DNA from: an uncultured Actinomycetes bacterium
Lineage (GTDB): Bacteria; Actinomycetota; Thermoleophilia; UBA2241
Length of the DNA stretch: 64,000 bases
Direction: 5' to 3'
NCBI GenBank assembly: GCA_963767005.1
Contig: CAVYCN010000003.1
Span: forward strand, 96,001-160,000
Positions 1-63,987 of this stretch are shown here, piece by piece. Made by a program: the position numbers and the translations under genes. The stretch's first letter is position 1. Each line of letters begins with the position of its first letter. The notes below the pieces were generated by a model. The model ran no database searches. It saw only the letters and a program-made list of their open reading frames with translations, and was not told the DNA's origin.

Positions 1-211
1 GGGCGATGGGCAGCTCCATCAGCGTGGCGAACAGACAGGCCATCCAGACTGAGCAGCCCGGGAAAGCCTCAGGCGCCCAGACGAACGTCCAGGGGAAGAT
101 CACCCCCATCGTAAGGAAGTTGTACGCGAACGCAGACCAAGGCGACATCACCCTGGACAGCCCCGAGGCCTTGCGGCTGAAGACTTCGGGCCTGGCGACA
201 CTGGACTCCAT
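1..211 (-). CDS. APC-family amino acid/amine permease, N-terminal part (runs off the left edge; missing from the ORF track)
   Basis: Manual translation from ATG at 211 gives MESSVARPEVFSRKASGLSRVMSPWSAFAYNFLTMGVIFPWTFVWAPEAFPG... The FxRxASGLxR N-terminus followed by hydrophobic helices is typical of APC permeases. GAGGGGG SD-like sequence upstream. Confidence 0.75.
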   Translation of the reverse strand, partial: MESSVARPEVFSRKASGLSRVMSPWSAFAYNFLTMGVIFPWTFVWAPEAFPGCSVWMACLFATLMELPIA

Positions 212-908
212 CGATGTCACCCCCTCGACCGAAGATATGAAGACGCCTCCAGGATCGGCTCCTTGTCGACCTGTCTTACGCTCGTCTGACCCATGACGCC
301 CCTTTCAGAGACAATCGACAGGTCGGGAGGTTATCACTCAGGATCGCTCATGTAAAGCACAATAGTGCCTCTTTCTGCTAGCTCAGTGAAACGGGAGTTA
401 GACAGCACACGTCGCTGGGGCAGGACGTCGCTGCGATCTGTCTCGAGATCTCAACGCTTGCGAAAGAAAGTGACGATTTGCAGGTACTAACAACATCTCA
501 TCGGGGCGTCGCCCTGAAGACCCCTAACTCGCCCATAGACATTCTGATACTCACTTCGGGCCGAGAACACATCTGGCTGGGGGAGTCATCTCCGATGTGG
601 GGCAATCCCACCAGCGCGCACGTGACTGGCCTCTGCTCGCTTCTGACTGTCGCTGTCAGTCGCGTGGCGCCCCTGCGATGCGGGTGGAGAGGTATGGCGC
701 AGGCGCGCGCCCCCTGACCGATAGCACATCGTACCCGAGCGCGCGCCTCAGCGTTCTCGCATGTCCGTAAGCTCCCTGATCAGCTCATGAAGAAGCGATG
801 CAGGCGCGACTTGGAAAGCGGCCGCCGGAAGGGAGCCGAGCACGACTGCAGAGCGCGAGGTGAGGTCGTGGCGCCAGGCAGTCGTGAAACGGCGGTAAAC
901 GAGTTGAT

Positions 909-1907
909 CTAGCCTGACGTCATCTGATAGCCCACCACCTTGCCGGGCTCGAGCGTGATGATGCAGCCCCGGATGATGCCCTCGCCGTACTCGCTGCCGG
1001 GGTTGATGACGGTCGTGCGACCGAGGTTCACAAGGCCGCGCGACTCGTGGATGTGTCCCGTAAGGGCGAGCAGGGGCGCGTGCTTCTCGATGATCTTGCG
1101 CACCGCCGTGCTGCCGGCCGGCGCCGACTGCGGCACGCCGGCGATGACGATGGGCGAGGGCGGGTCGGTCGACCAGTCGAGCTTGGGGCAGTCGTCGAGC
1201 GTGCAGTCGTAGGGCGGCACGTGCATGTTGAAGATGGCGCTCGTGAAGTCGTCGATGCCGTCGACCGCCTGCTCGAGCAGCGTGTAGAGGGACTCCTCAT
1301 CGGTCTCGCGCGGCGTCGCCCAGGGCGTCGGGTTGCTGTGGCCGCAGTTGGCCATGGGGTAGAAGTCGTCGAACAGCACGACCCGGCCCTCGCAGTTGAC
1401 TACATGCTCGCTCTGCACCTCGTCGAAGACGGTGAGCACGTCGGGCGGGTCGTCGTTGCCGCCGGTCACGTACCACTTGATCGGCGTGTCGGCGAGGCGC
1501 TCGTCGGCCAGCGCGATCCAGCGCTCGATGCGCTCGCGCGCCAGGCGATGGAACGTGCCGTCGACCTGTGACTGGTCCGCCTGCATGGCGTGGAGCTCGT
1601 CCTCGGCCATCGTCACGTGGTAGAAGCCGAGCGTCTCGATGCGCTCCTTGATGGCGGCCAGGGCGTCGTCGCCCTCGATGTGCTCGGTCGTGCCCTGGAG
1701 CGTCACGCGGTAGTGGCTGTCGTGCTCATGGACGATGGGCACGAGGAACTTGCCCATGATGTCGCCGCCCATGATGATGTGGTCGACCTTGTAGAACTTG
1801 GCGCAGTTCACGAACTTGCGGAACGTGCGCTCCGAGCCGTGCACGTCGGTCGCATAGAACAGGCGCACGCGTTTGGCCCCGCCGTCCTTCTTCTTGAACA
1901 GTCCCAT
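909..1907 (-). CDS. Calcineurin-like (Icc-type) metallophosphoesterase
   Basis: Motifs TDVHG, GGDIMG, GGNDD, HVPP, GHIHES, INPGS. Start moved to ATG 1907 (MGLFKK). Confidence 0.85.
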   Translation of the reverse strand: MGLFKKKDGGAKRVRLFYATDVHGSERTFRKFVNCAKFYKVDHIIMGGDIMGKFLVPIVHEHDSHYRVTLQGTTEHIEGDDALAAIKERIETLGFYHVTMAEDELHAMQADQSQVDGTFHRLARERIERWIALADERLADTPIKWYVTGGNDDPPDVLTVFDEVQSEHVVNCEGRVVLFDDFYPMANCGHSNPTPWATPRETDEESLYTLLEQAVDGIDDFTSAIFNMHVPPYDCTLDDCPKLDWSTDPPSPIVIAGVPQSAPAGSTAVRKIIEKHAPLLALTGHIHESRGLVNLGRTTVINPGSEYGEGIIRGCIITLEPGKVVGYQMTSG

Positions 1908-1923
1908 GGCGTGACCCGTCCTC

Positions 1924-2736
1924 TCAGTCGATCTCGTTGTACCACTTGACCTTGTCGCCGACCTTGGAGCGCAGGCGCCAGCGGGTGCCCTTGGGCTCAT
2001 CGTCCATCGCCTTGAGCAGCTCGCCGACGCGCTGCGCCACGACGGCGCGGTCTTCGTCGGACAGGTCGACGTGCGGCAGGTAGTCGCGTACCTTGCCGAG
2101 GTTCATCGAGCTCGTGCGCCACAGGCCCCACTCGCCGGCGCACAGGGTGGCGATCCGGGCCGCGTTTATGTGATCGGCGTCGTCGCGCGCGATCTCGTGC
2201 TCGCGCAGCAGCATGATGGTGTCGATGATGTCCTTCTCGTTGATCTTGACGATCTGCATCTTCTCCAGGACGAGCTCGGCCAGCGGGATGGTGGGGCTGT
2301 CGACGGCGAGCCGGTCCTTCCAGGGGATGGGGTGGCAGAAGTCGAGCCGGTCCATGAAGACGTCGACGTGGATGTGCTTGACCGGGTGGTTGAAGATCAG
2401 GCGCCCGGCCTCGGCGTGGAAGCTGTTGATCTCGACGTCCTCGTCGTAGCCGAGCGCGATGAAGAGGTCGCGGATCGGCTTTGACTGCTTGCCGTAGCCG
2501 GCGAAGTCGATGTCGGTGTACACGCGGTTGAGCTTGGCCTGGATCCAGCCGAACTGCGGGCAGTGATGGTGGAAGGCAAGGGCGCCGATCACGCGCAGCG
2601 CCACGCCGGCCTGCTGACCCGCCTGGACGACCCGCAGGGCCTCGTCCTCGAACACCCGCGCGAGGTCGGCGTCGGGCTGGCCGACGCCGACCTGCGCGCC
2701 GACCTCGCCGGCGGGGTGGGTGCCTTCGTCACTCAT
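1924..2736 (-). CDS. Uncharacterised nucleotidyltransferase-fold protein
   Basis: RVIGALA...YTDIDF (G[GSA]...DxD) plus HVDVF as third acidic residue and LEKMQI helix. Lies 16 bp from the phosphoesterase. Confidence 0.65.
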   Translation of the reverse strand: MSDEGTHPAGEVGAQVGVGQPDADLARVFEDEALRVVQAGQQAGVALRVIGALAFHHHCPQFGWIQAKLNRVYTDIDFAGYGKQSKPIRDLFIALGYDEDVEINSFHAEAGRLIFNHPVKHIHVDVFMDRLDFCHPIPWKDRLAVDSPTIPLAELVLEKMQIVKINEKDIIDTIMLLREHEIARDDADHINAARIATLCAGEWGLWRTSSMNLGKVRDYLPHVDLSDEDRAVVAQRVGELLKAMDDEPKGTRWRLRSKVGDKVKWYNEID

Positions 2737-3264
2737 AGCTTGCTCCCACATGTCTCGAGACGATGACCAGCTCGCTCGCGGTGCTCCAATCGTGAGCGTC
2801 CAGAACCAAGAACGATGCGAGCAGATGGCCGCCCAACGTCTGCTTGGAGGTAAACTGATCAGTGTCGTGCATGGTAACGGAAAGTTGAGCGAAGTTGACG
2901 ACAGTCTAGGCTCTCCTTGCTACTCGTCAAGCTCAGCCAGTTCTTCCATCGCGGGTTTGAGGTCACTGTCCGGGCTTGTGGGGCCGCGGGCTCGCAGTCT
3001 TGAGGTGGAGCGACGGCGGCATCGCCGCCGCTCCACCGTTCGGACAGCTGGCTTGCACTCTGGGGGCAGCACGCAAGTTGTCCGCACTCGCCAGCAACCG
3101 GGGGAGACAGAGGCTGCTGGCAAGCTTTGCCTTGTTGTTGGGAGGTTTGGTCGCGTCGGGAGGCTGACCAGGGGCACGCCAACCCAGCGATGTACCCCGA
3201 CGGCACCTCAGGAACCCCGCCGTCCGTGCATTGCTCGCAAGTGTGGCGCGTTCCAGGACACGGA

Positions 3265-4659
3265 TCAGACGAGACCCTGGTCGAGCATGCTGTCGGCGAC
3301 CTTGACGAAACCGGCGATGTTCGCGCCGTTCACGTAGTTGCCGGGCGTGTCGTACTCGTTGGCCGCGTCGACGCACTGCTTGTGGATGGCCTTCATGATC
3401 CCGTGGAGACGGGTGTCGACCTCTTCGCGCGTCCAGGCCAGGCGCAGGCTGTTCTGGCTCATCTCGAGACCGGAGGTGGCCACGCCGCCGGCGTTGGCGG
3501 CCTTGCCGGGGCCGTAGAGGATGCCGGCCTTGACGAACTGCTCGACGCCTTCGGGGACCGTCGGCATGTTGGCGCCTTCGGAGACCACGTACACGCCGTT
3601 CTTCAGCAGGTTGGCGGCGTCCTTGGCGTTGATCTCGTTCTGGACGGCGCTCGGGAAGGCCGCGTCGGCCTTGATGTCCCACAGCGGGTTGTGGTCGGCG
3701 TTCCTGTCGATCGGGTAGAACTTGGCGCCGAACTTGTCGGCGTACTCCTTGATGCGGCCGCGCTTGACGTTCTTGAGCTCGAGCAGGAAGGCGAGCTTCT
3801 CGCGATCGATGCCCTCGGCGTCATGAATGAAGCCGCTCGAGTCGGACAGCGTGACGGCCTTGCCGCCCAGGTCGAGGATCTTCTCGACGGTGTACTGGGC
3901 GACGTTGCCCGAACCGCTGACCAGGCAGGTCTTGCCCTCGAGGGTGTCGTCGCGCGTGTTCAGCATCTCCTCGGCGAAGTAGACCGCGCCGTAGCCGGTC
4001 GCCTCGGGACGGATCAGCGAGCCGCCCCAGTTGAGGCCCTTGCCCGTCAGCACGCCGACGAACTCGTTGCGGATGCGCTTGTACTGGCCGAACATGAAGC
4101 CGATCTCGCGACCGCCGACGCCGATGTCGCCGGCGGGGACATCGGTGAACTGGCCGATGTGCCGGCTGAGCTCGGTCATGAAGCTCTGGCAGAAGCGCAT
4201 GACCTCGCCGTCGCTCTTGCCCTTGGGGTCGAAGTTCGAGCCGCCCTTGCCGCCGCCCATGGGGAGCGTGGTGAGAGCGTTCTTGAAGACCTGCTCGAAG
4301 GCGAGGAACTTGAGCATGCCGAGGTAGACGGTCGGATGGAAGCGCAGGCCGCCCTTGTAGGGGCCGATGGCGCTGTTCATCTCGATGCGGAAGCCCTTCT
4401 GGATCTGGATCTCGCCCTTGTCGTCGACCCAGGGGACACGGAACATGATGACGCGCTCGGGCTCGATGATGCGCTCGAGGATCTTGGCTTCGCGGTACTT
4501 GGGATGGCGCGCGAGCACGGGCTCGAGCGACTCGGCGACTTCCTGGACGGCCTGGTGGAACTCGAGCTCGCCCTGGTTCTTGGCCACGACGTCGGCCATG
4601 AGCTTCTTCACGTACTCGGTCTTCGGTGCGGTAACCACGCTCACTTCAGAGCCCTCCAT
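3265..4659 (-). CDS. gdhA: NADP-specific glutamate dehydrogenase
   Basis: GPYKGGLRFHP, MGGGKGGSNFDPKGKS, DVPAGDIGVG, RPEATGYG, GSGNVA, GKAANAGGVATSGLEM. Confidence 0.97.
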   Translation of the reverse strand: MEGSEVSVVTAPKTEYVKKLMADVVAKNQGELEFHQAVQEVAESLEPVLARHPKYREAKILERIIEPERVIMFRVPWVDDKGEIQIQKGFRIEMNSAIGPYKGGLRFHPTVYLGMLKFLAFEQVFKNALTTLPMGGGKGGSNFDPKGKSDGEVMRFCQSFMTELSRHIGQFTDVPAGDIGVGGREIGFMFGQYKRIRNEFVGVLTGKGLNWGGSLIRPEATGYGAVYFAEEMLNTRDDTLEGKTCLVSGSGNVAQYTVEKILDLGGKAVTLSDSSGFIHDAEGIDREKLAFLLELKNVKRGRIKEYADKFGAKFYPIDRNADHNPLWDIKADAAFPSAVQNEINAKDAANLLKNGVYVVSEGANMPTVPEGVEQFVKAGILYGPGKAANAGGVATSGLEMSQNSLRLAWTREEVDTRLHGIMKAIHKQCVDAANEYDTPGNYVNGANIAGFVKVADSMLDQGLV

Positions 4660-60129: not shown

Positions 60130-60861
60130 TCAGACTGGCCCCGGCGGCCCGCCCGGGTCGACGCCGGCCCGCCGAAAGGCGCGGTCGCGCAGCTCGCGCA
60201 CCACGCCCTCCCAGTAGTCGAACACGGCGTCGACGTCGAAATCGGGGTCGGCCGCGATCTGCTCGGCGAGGCCGTCGCAGACTGCGACGGTGATCGCGCA
60301 CAGCGGGTCGAGCTCGCGCTTGAGACGAGCGTCGACGTCGGGCGCGAGCGCCCACTCGTCGAGATCGCGGTACCAGCGGTACAGCTCAGCCATGCGCGTG
60401 CGCAGCTCGTCGTCGCGGATGAGCTGCGGGAACAGGTCCCAGAAACGCCGGTAGCCCACCTGCGCCTTGGTGCTGTGGCGATGCATGGCGAGCAGCATCT
60501 CGACGCGGTCGGCGCCGGCCACCTCGGGCTGGCGCAGCGCCCGCAGCAGCGCCATGTTGTCGTCGTGCACGACCGAGTCGGCAAGCGCCTCGACCAGGCC
60601 GGCCTTGTTGCCGAAGTGGTAGCGGATGCTCGCCTTGTTCTCGTGCGCCTCGGCGGCGATCGCCTCGAAGGTGAGGCCGCCGAAGCCGCGCTCGTCGAGC
60701 AGGCGCTTGCTGGCTTCGAGGATGCGCTGCGCGGTGGGCGACAGGTCGGCGGCCGGGTCGGCGCCGGCCGCCGGCCGGCCGCCCACCTCCCAGCGCCGCT
60801 TCGGCGGCGTCGCTCCGCTGTCGTCGGGCCGCCCAGCGGCGGCCTTGCGCTCCCGCGCCAT
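60130..60861 (-). CDS. TetR-family regulator, divergent from mtbB
   Basis: RILEASKRLL, LTFEAIA, SIRYHFGNKAGL. ATG at 60861. Confidence 0.9.
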   Translation of the reverse strand: MARERKAAAGRPDDSGATPPKRRWEVGGRPAAGADPAADLSPTAQRILEASKRLLDERGFGGLTFEAIAAEAHENKASIRYHFGNKAGLVEALADSVVHDDNMALLRALRQPEVAGADRVEMLLAMHRHSTKAQVGYRRFWDLFPQLIRDDELRTRMAELYRWYRDLDEWALAPDVDARLKRELDPLCAITVAVCDGLAEQIAADPDFDVDAVFDYWEGVVRELRDRAFRRAGVDPGGPPGPV

Positions 60862-61081: not shown

Positions 61082-62521
61082 ATGGAGCAGAGCATCATCA
61101 CGCGACTGGCCGACGGATCGCTCGTGCGCATGACGCCGAGCGAGATCCACGCCGACCTCGAAGAGGGCAGCGCCGCCGGCGCCAAGAAGGCCAAGGCACC
61201 CCCGCTCGAACCCGACGAGCTCGACCGCCTGCTCGAGATCTTCGCCTCGAACGCCCACTTCACGGCGGTCGACATCGGCGACGAGCTCATCCTGTCGTGC
61301 GACGGCTCGGGCAACATGGACTCCGGCACGCGCATCGACGAGCTCTACAGCTACCAGAGCCACCGCGGCGCCGACATCGTCGAGCTGTACCACATCGACT
61401 ACTCGTACAAGGCCGTCAAGACGGTCATGTCGTTCGAGCAGCAGGTGATGAAGAACGCCCAGCTCAACCTGGTGGCGCCGCTGCAGTACGGGGCGATGCC
61501 CGACCTGGGCCGCTACTCGCAGCCCGACGGGCCCATTCCCAACTGGTCGGAGCTGCTGCCCCTGGGGCGCATCGACGAAGCGCGCGCCGCCCAGGAGGAG
61601 GCAGTCGAGCACGCCGTACGCGACATGGTCTTCGTCGCCGAGGGCATGATCGAGGCCGGCGCCGACGGCATGGACTTCGACACCTCGGGCGCCGCCGGCG
61701 ACGCCGACTTCCTCGCCACGCTGCTCGCCGTCGAGGAGATCAGGCGGCGCCATCCCGATATCGGCATCGAGCTCGGCATGGCGAGCGAGTTCGTGCTCGG
61801 CATGCACGGCGAGCTCGAGTTCCACGGCAAGCGCCTCGCCGGCCTGTGGCCGCGCGACCAGGTCGCCGTGGCGGCCGAGGCGGGCGCGACCATGTTCGGG
61901 CCGGCGGTCAACGTCAACACGACACGCTCCGTGGCCTGGAACGTGGCGCGCGCCCTGGCGATCGTCAAGCCCTGCGTGCAGGAGTCGCCCATCCCGGTGC
62001 ACATGAACGCCGGCATGGGCGTGGGCGGCGTGCCGATGACCGCATACCCGCCGACCGACGCCGTGTCGCGCATGGCGCGCGCGATGCGCGAGGTCGGCCG
62101 CCTGGACGGCTTATAGGTGGGTGTGGGTGACCCGCTCGGCATGGCGTGCAGCCATGCGCTCGCCGCGGGCATGGGCGGAATGCGGACCGCCGGAGACCTG
62201 GTGGCCCGCATGCAGATGACCCGCGGCATGCGACTCGAGCAGGCCAAGACCTACGTCGCCGAACGGCTCGGCGTGAGCGTCCTCGACCTCTGCGACCCGC
62301 TCGTCATGCACGACGTGCGGCGCGAGCTCGGCCTGGGGCTGATCCCCGTGCAGGAGCTCACCTACCCGAGCGAGCCCGGCTCGATCGAGGCCAAGTTCCA
62401 CATCGCCGAGGTGCTCGACGTGCCCATCAACTGCGTGCGGCAGTTCAAGAATCGCGTCGCCCCGCGCTCGCGCGCGCGGCAGGTCGGCGCGACGGCGACC
62501 AGACCGGAGGTGCCCGCGTGA
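61082..62521 (+). CDS. mtbB: Dimethylamine:corrinoid methyltransferase with pyrrolysine (TAG 62114-62116, codon 345 of 479 aa)
   Basis: Two ORF-track pieces are joined in frame across one TAG: LDGL-*-VGVGDPLGM...RTAGDLVARMQM, matching the MtbB DGI-Pyl-IGVGDPLGM site. Also YGAMPDLG, FDTSGAAGDADF, GMGVGGVPM. Confidence 0.93.
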
Positions 62522-63987
62522 AACGTAACCTCTTCGCCGGCCGGCCGCGCAGCGGCGGCCTGCGCCTGAACGTCTTCACCGAGGCCGAGGTCGACGACAT
62601 CCACTCGGCGACGCTCGAGGTGCTCGAACGCACCGGCGTGTTCGTCGAGGCCGACGAGGCGCTCGACATCTTCTCGGACGGCGGCTGCGACGTGGACCGC
62701 GAGACGCACGTGGTGCGCATCCCGCCGCACGCCGTCGAGGACGCGATCCGCTCGGCGCCCGCGAAGATCGTGCTCTGCGGCCGCGAGCCGAAGAACGATG
62801 TCGTGCTCGAGCCGGGCCGCGTCGCCTTCACCAACTTCAGCGAGGGCATCCGCGTAGTCGATCCGTGGTCGGGCGAGATCCGCGACTCGACCAAGGCCGA
62901 CATCGGCGACATCGCCCGCCTGAACGACTACCTGTCCGACATCGACACGCACGAGATCGCGGTCGGCGCCAGAGACGTGCCGCCCGAGACCTGCGCGGTG
63001 CACAACGCCGAGATGCAGTACCTGAACACGACCAAGCCGATCGGCATCGGACCGCTGTCGCGCACCGAGACGATCGCCATCTTCCGCATGGGCGCCGAGA
63101 TCGTCGGCGGCGCCGATGAGCTGCGCCGGCGCCCGATCGTCTACAACGGCGTCTGCCCGGTGAGTCCGCTCAAGCTGCCGCACGAGGCCACCGAGGTGAT
63201 CATCGAGACGGCCCGCTGGGGTATTCCCAACAACATCCTCTCGATGGCGATGGCCGGCGGCTCGTCGCCGGTCACCCTGGCCGGCACCCTGGTCACCCAC
63301 AACGCCGAGGTGCTGTCGGGCATCACGCTGGCGCAGCTCTCTGAGCGGGGCGCGCCCTGCATCTACGGCAGCTCGACGACGGCGATGGACCTCAAGCTGG
63401 CGGCGGCCTGCGTGGGCTCGCCCGAGCTCGCCATGATCTCGGCCGCCGTGGCCCAGATGGCCAGGCGCTACCTGCTGCCGAGCTTCGTGGCCGGCTTGTA
63501 GGCTGACTCGAAGCTCGGTGACGCCCAGGTCGGGCACGAGAAAACCCTCACCGGCATCATGGCAGCGTTGGCAGGGGCCAACCTGATCTACGGTTCGGGG
63601 ATGATCGAGTCGGGCGTCACCTTCGATTGCGGGCAGTTCGTCATGGACAACGAGTTCGCCCGCATGATCAAGCACTGCGTCGGCGGCATCACGGTGAGCG
63701 ACGACACGCTCGCCGTCGACGACATCGCGGCGGTGGGGTCGTTCGGCGACTTCCTGTCGCTCGACGCCACCCTGCGCCACATGCGCGAGCTCTCCCAGCC
63801 GGAGCTCCTCGACCGCCGCGTGCGCGAGGACTGGGAGGAGCGCGGCGCTACCGACCTGCACGCCCGTTGCCTGGCCAAGGCGCGCGAAATCCTCACAAAC
63901 TTCACGCCGGCGCAGCTCGACGACGACGTCAAGGGGCGCATTCGCGATATCGTGGTCGAGACCGATCGTCTGGTCGGTGTCGCCTGA
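62518..63987 (+). CDS. mttB: Trimethylamine:corrinoid methyltransferase with pyrrolysine (TAG 63499-63501, codon 328 of 489 aa)
   Basis: GTG start overlaps the mtbB TGA, with a GGAGG SD. PSFVAGL-*-ADSKLGDAQVGHEKT matches the MttB VAG.-Pyl-.D.K..D.Q.GHEK site. SPVTLAGTLVTHNAEVLSG, YGSST, GSPE. The frame stays open to TGA 63987. Confidence 0.94.

Follow-up and report, generated by a model that had tools for sequence, protein, structure and literature searches.

The window that we analysed (64,000 nucleotides from a Thermoleophilia-like genome) contains two adjacent genes, mtbB and mttB, each with a TAG codon in frame, and raises the question of how a UAG that is read as Pyl is told apart from a UAG that ends a gene. 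Both genes encode Pyl-containing methylamine methyltransferases, as they score above the cut-offs of their family HMMs (mtbB, 438.6 bits against TIGR02368, cut-off 369.1; mttB, 687 bits against TIGR02369, cut-off 525) and have an in-frame TAG at the Pyl site. The genome holds 16 Pyl genes and encodes tRNA-Pyl(CUA) (C3:242986-243058) as well as pylSn, pylSc, pylB, pylC, and pylD, with all five families (TIGR03912, 02367, 03910, 03909, and 03911) over their cut-offs; MiaA and Rho are also encoded. UAG is ambiguous in this genome because TAG terminates 829 of its 2196 long ORFs. In a phylum-wide sample, mtbB was found in 3 of 401 genomes. A search of viral contigs gave no match, and the best 15 of 195 plasmid matches were distant MttB homologs, each with less than 60% identity. 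We propose that a rare Leu codon directly before the UAG and a co-varying hairpin with an AG loop, 60-120 bases after it, together are likely to help the ribosome read through.

Features of the two Pyl genes (positions count from the first letter of the window)
Feature	Position	Strand	Remarks
mtbB, dimethylamine:corrinoid methyltransferase	61082..62521	+	479 aa; Pyl is codon 345; single in-frame TAG
-1 codon TTA (Leu) of mtbB	62111..62113	+	in the P site during UAG decoding
Pyl UAG of mtbB	62114..62116	+	aligned Pyl position in 8/8 own paralogs
+15 stem of mtbB	62131..62169	+	can form; not conserved; excluded from the signal
Conserved co-varying hairpin of mtbB	62178..62213	+	+62..+97 nt after the TAG; tetraloop AGAC at 62194-62197
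mttB, trimethylamine:corrinoid methyltransferase	62518..63987	+	489 aa; Pyl is codon 328
-1 codon TTG (Leu) of mttB	63496..63498	+	one of 2 TTR among the gene's 43 Leu codons
Pyl UAG of mttB	63499..63501	+	in-frame TAG at the aligned Pyl position
+15 stem of mttB	63516..63553	+	outer helix kept in the high-GC lineage only
Conserved co-varying hairpin of mttB	63563..63585	+	+62..+84 nt after the TAG; tetraloop AGGG at 63573-63576

The initial annotation had noticed that the two UAGs share a context, GGC TTA TAG G (62108-62117) in mtbB and GGC TTG TAG G (63493-63502) in mttB, and that TTR codons are rare in both genes. The letters and coordinates are correct, and so is the rarity: the TTA before the UAG is the sole TTR among the 42 Leu codons of mtbB, and the Table gives the count for mttB. 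The preference for TTR extends well beyond these two genes. Across the Pyl genes of this genome, a Leu before the UAG is encoded by TTR in 12 of 12 cases, as compared to a background of 3.7% and to 1 of 42 Leu codons at true TAG stops. Among high-GC representatives of mtbB, 38 of 39 have TTR in the -1 column (4 of 35 in the next Leu column), and the -1 Leu of mttB is TTR in 39 of 39; in MttB proteins that are free of Pyl, the Leu at the same site is CTC or CTG in 8 of 8. When we pooled mtbB, mttB, and mtmB genes that are putatively bacterial (a set without any labelled Firmicutes gene), the -1 Leu was TTR in 291 of 301. Leu codons that precede TAC or TAT sense codons are TTR in 1.3%. The -1 rule does have exceptions: it is broken by CTG in 3 of 4 held-out mtbB genes, and the tree holds five independent changes from TTR to CTN at this codon.

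TTR is the part of the shared context that exceeds chance. GGC at -2 is present in just 7 of the 16 Pyl genes of the genome, and relatives use all four Gly codons there. The G after the TAG (190 G, 62 A, and 3 C among 255 mtbB) is determined by the protein, because it opens the next codon. We also set aside the idea that TTA was chosen as a slow, rare codon. Slowness is not a common feature, because the pooled TTR codons are mostly TTG (282, versus 9 TTA) and because GCG, which is a common codon, also occurs: GCG, GGG or GGA, and TAC are all in use before a Pyl UAG, with GCG and GGG serving in other subfamilies. (Where the -1 residue is Gly, its codon is GGR in 31 of 33 cases.) This variety of -1 codons, TTA included, also led us to reject TTG-TAG as a start-stop mini-ORF.

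As the 3' half of a signal, a stem had been proposed 15 nt past each TAG. Both stems can form, and both begin at that offset, but neither is more stable than dinucleotide shuffles (z of -1.57 in mtbB and -0.73 in mttB) or synonymous recodings (z of -1.7 and -1.0). The full inner stem of mtbB is present in 3 of 40 representatives with high GC and in 0 of 76 with mid GC, and we rejected the mtbB stem as a signal. For mttB, 6 of 14 high-GC (null, 0.2) and 3 of 21 mid-GC representatives (z of -0.3) have the whole outer stem; this stem is one of three competing helices, the inner helix is not conserved, and the third-position pairs that we tested in this region rank low for covariation. Because the stems are not above shuffles and are poorly conserved, the identical offset in the two genes is most likely a coincidence.

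As judged by comparing sequences, the constrained 3' element is instead a hairpin that is capped by an AG(A/G)N tetraloop. It starts about 62 nt past the UAG in mtbB and mttB and at +94 in mtmB, which places the loop at +78, +72, and +114 nt, respectively. Mutual information over all alignment columns was swamped by amino-acid phylogeny, and we reran it on third positions only. In mtbB, third-position pairs of the hairpin then ranked 1, 2, and 4 of 93,114 for covariation, and its 85 double-change cells were matched by 0 of 500 shuffles; the folding z is -5.19, and the helix extends, with covariation, to about 14-16 bp. In mttB, the pair +66/+81 ranked first of 95,280 (and first of 99,681 on the tree), and the core helix is intact in 9 of 9 and 10 of 14, versus 0.2 and 0.4 for the null. 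Thus, the hairpin co-varies in both genes. Raw counts of compensatory changes on the mtbB tree are unremarkable (94 to 3531 of 95,703 pairs are equally high), and only normalised counts put the hairpin pairs first.

The codons within the hairpin are also constrained. Gly +26 of mtbB is GGA in 121 of 121 representatives; in mttB, 36 of 37 use GCA for Ala +24 and 31 of 37 use TTR for Leu +23. In both genes, the most constrained synonymous site is the A of the loop, which is the freely chosen base, while the G beside it is fixed by the protein. The AG(A/G)N loop is present in 251 of 254 mtbB, 83 of 84 mttB, and 10 of 11 mtmB, and also in 9 of 9 genes that were fetched after the motif was defined. 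Pyl-free MttB that share the peptide motif have the loop A in 1 of 18 cases, versus 75 of 76. A hairpin with this loop and a stem of 6 bp or more follows the UAG in 15 of 16 Pyl genes of the genome, as compared to 6 of 574 TAG stops, 8 of 1019 TGA stops, and 47 of 6588 random coding windows. True TAG stops and Pyl-free homologs lack both the hairpin and the -1 codon, and both features are under selection at synonymous sites. This selection supports, in part, the initial annotation's view that a two-part cis context may mark sense UAGs, but the parts are different ones: the 5' part is the -1 codon alone, and the 3' part lies at about +62 rather than at +15.

The hairpin does not extend to every gene or lineage. 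The 11 mtmB sequences are close relatives and show no covariation in it; just 4 of 11 have a stem of 5 bp or more, and the hairpin is missing from the single deltaproteobacterial Pyl-mtmB that we examined. Archaeal mtbB do not keep it (loop in 6 of 14, core helix in 2 of 9, z of 0.8). Scanning all TAGs of the genome for the hairpin plus a coding signal on both sides returned 12 known genes and 2 unconvincing frames; the output of a codon-score scan for additional Pyl genes was dominated by adjoining in-frame genes.

Could these patterns have no RNA function at all, and reflect protein conservation, shared ancestry, avoidance of DNA words (CTAG or CTRYAG), or an internal Shine-Dalgarno-like GGAG or AGGGG? 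CTAG is indeed under-represented in the genome (observed/expected of 0.27; 0.61 for CTGTAG), and part of the purine preference at -1 can come from this scarcity. The choice of TTG over CTG is not so explained, and CTG-TAG is used at 24 true stops, so we rejected word avoidance as the sole cause. Furthermore, the adjoining Gly at -2 is saturated, with all four codons in use, and the pattern is common to three different families. For the hairpin, the peptide does dictate part of the mtbB helix (4.7-4.9 of 6 pairs under the null), but compensatory double changes exist, and the covariation largely refutes this explanation. The GGAG of mtbB is followed 5 nt on by an in-frame GTG, as an internal restart would have it; this codon (+29) is GTC, GTA, or GTT in 25 of 108 and about 50 of 141 genes and therefore is not a start codon. 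We consider it very improbable that the patterns lack an RNA function.

The reading towards which we lean, by a modest degree, is that the -1 codon and the AG(A/G)N hairpin, 62-140 nt past the UAG, jointly favour Pyl-tRNA over release factor 1. The -1 codon would set which tRNA occupies the P site. The tRNA-Leu(CAA/UAA) have A37 in their anticodon loops and the tRNA-Leu(CAG/GAG) have G37, and the former may be picked over the latter because they weaken competition by release factor 1 or improve the accommodation of Pyl-tRNA. Any such context effect must be quantitative, since 97.7% of 4096 flanking-codon contexts allowed incorporation by an engineered archaeal pair in E. coli (10.64898/2026.04.16.718949). 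The hairpin is too distant for the mRNA entry channel, and its unpaired loop A sits at a freely variable codon position, so it probably serves as the binding site of a protein and loops back to the paused ribosome, as in SECIS, rather than being a mechanical barrier. Its effect on UAG decoding is what we infer from these patterns. The first candidate for its reader would be the free-standing bacterial PylSn/PylSc. A search of 32 pylSn neighbourhoods (about +/-9 kb, two phyla) turned up no dedicated reader gene, and the clusters that recurred across phyla consisted of pyl genes, the corrinoid protein, and shadow frames of these. The genome has a single SelB-sized factor, in an assembly without even EF-Tu.

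The varying distance of the loop from the UAG counts against this reading, as do the differing closing pairs of the loop (G-C, C-G, and U-G/C-G). A variable distance would fit a scenario in which the -1 codon tunes decoding while the hairpin acts on the mRNA and not on the ribosome: when a ribosome terminates or stalls at the UAG, the naked RNA behind it would fold. The hairpin might then counter Rho, as an anti-polarity signal or as a pause signal for RNA polymerase, block an exonuclease, or be the site at which a nuclease or regulator clears or represses non-productive transcripts. Rho is present, and polarity would matter because mtbB directly precedes mttB (they overlap at 62518-62521). 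Also consistent with action on the mRNA, the hairpin lies 60-115 nt from the UAG, the pattern is specific to bacteria, and AGNN tetraloops are described as a determinant of yeast RNase III substrates. On the other hand, the hairpin is linked to the UAG in 16 of 16 Pyl genes of the genome, at any operon position, and is absent from Pyl-free paralogs; this linkage fits any UAG-linked role and gives no preference to one at the mRNA level, which we regard as somewhat unlikely.

It is less likely still that the -1 codon and the fold are generic context effects, each slowing or weakening termination without a dedicated reader, with the loop A only stabilising an AGNN fold. Precedents are described: extended 3' structures in alphaviruses, found by a similar synonymous-site signal, lift readthrough by up to 10-fold (PMC3159437), and Pyl-tRNA works with ordinary EF-Tu (PMC2933860). 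The lack of a reader gene in the pylSn neighbourhoods would also fit. However, the viral stems described there begin 7-9 nt past the stop (PMC3159437), versus at least 62 nt here. Furthermore, the hairpin's stability relative to synonymous recodings is modest (mean z of -0.9 to -2.0), yet the loop base hardly varies, a contrast that suggests recognition and not stability.

Returning to joint action on decoding, a stronger version, which we offer tentatively and think rather doubtful, is a shared bacterial Pyl insertion element: the AG(A/G)N hairpin would have arisen in three unrelated coding sequences and would be read by a trans factor, possibly free PylSn that delivers PylS-charged tRNA locally, and, together with the selected P-site tRNA, would turn chosen UAGs into sense codons. 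If so, it would be a counterpart of SECIS that earlier searches missed, a portable, synonymous tag with which amber codons could be suppressed at selected sites, and the means by which sense UAGs are chosen in genomes where over a third of the genes stop at UAG. In any case, annotation can use the pair of features to tell a Pyl codon from a true TAG stop, and work on expanding the genetic code with Pyl systems of bacteria could draw on it. Because we can name single synonymous bases (TTG versus CTG at -1, the loop A, and compensable stem pairs), the question can be tested with the protein unchanged.

Of these elements, the mtbB helix is already known, as it is contained in Rfam's PYLIS_2 model (RF02509). 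Positions 62114-62213 of the window score 60.7 bits against this model (gathering threshold 36), and the 4-nt loop of its second helix (model positions 81-84) is the AGAC loop of our mtbB hairpin; the core of our hairpin is this second helix, which in our genes runs on to about 14-16 bp. Unlike the second helix, the first has many non-standard pairs and appears not to be conserved in bacteria. The model does not cover the -1 codon. Bacterial sequences hardly vary in the loop, unlike archaeal ones. For mttB, positions 63499-63598 match PYLIS_3 (RF02510) at 68.1 bits (gathering 38); this match arises through the coding sequence, and the structure of the model differs from the conserved hairpin. 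PYLIS of Methanosarcina mtmB (RF01982), an archaeal element, is confined to the first 100 nt. This 3' element is described as dispensable, although it increases the amount of full-length product (PMC2933860, PMC12626013). The genome's own mtmB scores 46.1 bits against this PYLIS_1 model, below the gathering threshold of 70, and its AG-loop hairpin (+94..+139) is nearly all outside the model. The mttB hairpin, the mtmB hairpin, and the common loop were not found in Rfam or in the literature that we searched. A manual search in bacteria is reported to have found "no obvious common structure", with the argument that one should exist (PMC1976440).

Bacterial SECIS is likewise a hairpin, in frame and downstream of a recoded stop, and is described as having a conserved G in its apical loop (PMC1976440), as the AG(A/G)N loop also has. 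It differs in lying immediately downstream of the UGA, whereas the base of our hairpin is at +62 or +94, and in having a dedicated factor, SelB, while we found no second SelB in this assembly, which lacks even EF-Tu, and no other dedicated gene in the pylSn neighbourhoods. The readthrough signals of viruses and Drosophila are eukaryotic, rely on near-cognate tRNAs, and have stems close to the stop, but as described (PMC3159437), they resemble the bacterial Pyl context in having two parts, a third-base preference at -1 (xxA-UAG), and synonymous conservation 3' of the stop.

mtbB and mttB, which encode the dimethylamine and trimethylamine methyltransferases, are the last genes in the window, whose named close relatives belong to the Thermoleophilia/Actinomycetota. 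The genome encodes tRNA-Pyl, pylSn, pylSc, pylB, pylC, and pylD, and has 16 pyrrolysine (Pyl) genes: 8 mtbB, 7 mttB, and 1 mtmB (the third family of Pyl methyltransferases). UAG is ambiguous in this genome because TAG ends 829 of the 2196 long open reading frames (about 13 Pyl genes included). The 100-nt regions of mtbB and mttB match the Rfam pyrrolysine insertion sequence models PYLIS_2 (60.7 bits) and PYLIS_3 (68.1 bits), respectively, above the gathering threshold.

Features of the mtbB-mttB region (positions are those of the window)
Feature	Position	Strand	Remarks
TetR-like regulator ORF (putative, read from sequence)	60130-60861	-	divergent from mtbB-mttB
mtbB	61082-62521		one in-frame TAG; above NCBIfam cut-off for Pyl enzyme
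mtbB +15 stem	62131-62169		
mtbB hairpin	62178-62213		loop AGAY
mttB	62518-63987		one in-frame TAG; above NCBIfam cut-off for Pyl enzyme
mttB helix enclosing UAG	63477-63519		-22 to +18; 11 bp, can form
mttB +15 stem	63516-63553		
mttB hairpin	63563-63585		loop AGGN
mttB, past the hairpin	63592-63618		codons +31 to +39; more synonymous constraint (Gly +33 GGR 18/18, Ser +37 TCG, Val +39 GTC)

pylSn is present in 82 of the 89 genomes of the order. At locus L326:4049-14371, genes for a corrinoid protein, a radical SAM protein, and a SulP-type transporter lie between pylSc/pylSn and pylBCD-pylT. The window's genome likely uses Sec as well as Pyl, because it contains tRNA-Sec and a SelB-like gene. 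On its contig C19 (position 163121, minus strand), a formate-dehydrogenase-like frame contains an in-frame TGA, and a short hairpin whose loop is of the GGUCU type comes after it. No EF-Tu scored above the cut-off in this assembly, although its completeness figure is 100; this is probably an assembly gap.

The initial annotation proposed that a shared GGC-TTR-TAG-G context and a hairpin starting 15 nt downstream mark UAG as Pyl in both genes. Both contexts and both stems are present as described. The GGC is not conserved, and the G after the TAG is set by the protein. In contrast, the codon directly before the UAG (-1) does distinguish Pyl codons from stops. Just 3.7% of the leucine codons in the genome's long ORFs are TTR (3058/82,455), while the -1 codons of its 16 Pyl genes are 9 TTG, 3 TTA, 3 GCG, and 1 TAC, so that leucine is encoded by TTR in 12/12 cases. 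Before true TAG stops (574 ORFs that have 200 or more codons and a good coding score), leucine is TTR in 1 of 42. At the aligned site in Pyl-free MttB, all 8 leucines are CTC or CTG.

The same preference is found in a de-duplicated pool, which comprised 72 GTDB loci (from the best 80 of 204 stretches); deltaproteobacterial and related genomes, mtmB searches, and loci added later; and at least 124 metagenome loci chosen by a pattern blind to the -1 codon. Orthologs do not mainly have CTS before the TAG: leucine at -1 is TTR in 241/251 mtbB, 39/39 mttB, and 11/11 mtmB, glycine is GGR in 31/33, and alanine is GCG in 13/14. The preference is specific to this position: in 41 high-GC mtbB representatives, TTR makes up 38/39 in the -1 column versus 4/35 in the next leucine column, and in 81 mid-GC representatives it makes up 76/81 versus a median of 28%. 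We refer to genes outside a clade with isoleucine or valine at -1 as bacterial, a clade-based label that takes in many metagenome loci. The Ile/Val clade is archaeal where named (Methanolobus, Methanosarcinaceae, and Methanomethylophilaceae, from 3 of the 6 sequences checked), and 12 of 13 isoleucines at -1 in its mtbB genes (such as L196, L200, and L202) are ATA.

Several observations count against the -1 rule. The mtbB tree has 5 independent changes from TTR to CTN, and 3 of 4 held-out mtbB have CTG at -1. Also, CTAG is avoided genome-wide (observed/expected 0.27), which also lifts GGG before true TAG stops (23 GGG to 31 GGC). In one deltaproteobacterial family, three copies of mtbB that lie close to pylSn (L327, L330, and L339) have CTG at -1 and keep the AG loop described below; these are natural exceptions to the rule. 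Overall, the data show that the -1 codon is under selection and that this selection is tied to Pyl UAGs. The -1 codon probably acts by selecting the tRNA in the P site. Base 37 is A in the favored leucine tRNAs and G in those that are avoided; tRNAs with A36-A37-A38 would carry ms2i6A and G37 tRNAs would carry m1G. The genome encodes miaA.

The stems at +15 fared less well. Compared to dinucleotide shuffles, their stability is unexceptional (z = -1.57 for mtbB and -0.73 for mttB), the 16 paralogs give no consistent signal, and in samples of mtbB and mttB orthologs the window from codon +4 has a mean z of -0.5 to 0.2. The inner stem of mtbB is complete in just 3/40 and 0/76 representatives. The outer stem of mttB is found in 6 of 14 high-GC genes (0.2 under the null), but not above the null in 21 mid-GC genes, and it shares its bases with two other possible, competing helices. 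The 11-bp helix that encloses the UAG competes with it for +15 to +18. This helix stays above the synonymous null in the high-GC mttB (14 genes, z = 5.1), though not in the mid-GC mttB (21 genes); it could be a lineage-specific switch that is released when the ribosome arrives.

The conserved 3' element lies further downstream. We scanned synonymous codon choice across whole genes (371 hits, or 348 without duplicates, short rows, and frameshifted rows), and in each family two places stood out above the rest, namely the -1 codon and a block spanning codons +21 to +29. Within this block, all 121 of 121 mtbB representatives encode Gly +26 as GGA, and the mttB representatives use GCA for Ala +24 in 36/37 cases and TTR for Leu +23 in 31/37. 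Both blocks fold as a hairpin from 62 nt after the TAG, with a tetraloop that opens with the constrained A. A loop of this kind also occurs in high-GC mtmB, at +114, where 10/11 genes have GCA, ATA, GTA, or CTA as codon +38; it sits on a long stem made of rare AAT, xCT, and CAT codons. The one deltaproteobacterial Pyl-mtmB in our set lacks it.

Covariation supports this hairpin. Among third-position pairs across the whole gene, its pairs rank 1, 2, and 4 of 93,114 in mtbB (147 representatives) and 1 of 95,280 in mttB (56 representatives). When the trees were built with the hairpin columns left out, normalized counts of pair-preserving double changes rank four mtbB pairs 1, 7, 211, and 541 of 95,703 and the mttB pair 1 of 99,681; raw counts give lower ranks. 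The mtbB hairpin is 84.5% paired (slid controls, 26-41%) with 85 double-change cells, and the mttB hairpin is 87.9% paired with 7 (0/500 shuffles for each). The mtmB hairpin is 91.4% paired, without covariation among 11 close sequences. Nulls that preserve the protein give a reference for the 6-bp core: all of its pairs are present in 33/40 and 61/76 mtbB (null 8.6 and 12.3), 9/9 and 10/14 mttB (null 0.2 and 0.4), and 2/9 archaeal mtbB (null 0.7). Directly behind the UAG, archaeal mtbB folds more stably than its recodings (mean z = -2.1, 14 genes), and archaea appear to use another 3' element.

Where the same peptide motif is encoded, the loop A is present in 1/18 Pyl-free MttB versus 75/76 (53 Pyl-free sequences without the motif were left out). 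A hairpin with an AG[AG]N loop and a stem of 6 bp or more, a pattern derived from these same genes, follows 15 of the genome's 16 Pyl UAGs, versus 6/574 TAG stops, 8/1019 TGA stops, and 47/6588 random coding windows; genes fetched after the pattern was defined have the loop in 9/9 cases. These comparisons show that selection acts on a hairpin fold and on one fixed base in its loop, and that it is tied to the Pyl UAGs of non-archaeal genes. The initial proposal of a cis signal points at something real: it holds for the -1 codon, but not for the GGC or the +15 placement.

Because a fixed unpaired base sits on a modestly stable and distant hairpin, we infer that this hairpin is more probably a binding site than a roadblock. 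Among the neighborhoods of pylSn in 13 deltaproteobacterial and 19 Thermoleophilia loci, we found no gene for a reader, which leaves PylSn/PylSc or general factors as candidates. As a serious alternative, the hairpin may act at the level of the mRNA, by anti-polarity or on decay; Rho is present in this genome.

PMC6266110, citing Xu et al., reports that in E. coli the M. mazei pair is subject to flanking-codon effects that reach 100-fold, and gives no rule for native genes; 64x64 context data accompany another E. coli study (10.64898/2026.04.16.718949). Among the titles and text passages that our literature search covered, none describes a UUG that is conserved ahead of bacterial Pyl codons, or an AG-loop hairpin that is shared between these genes. 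The roles of the hairpin and the -1 codon are directly testable by synonymous mutations. Judging from sequence comparisons, what is conserved 3' of the UAG is an AG-tetraloop hairpin that co-varies and has a putative function, a new form of the PYLIS idea.
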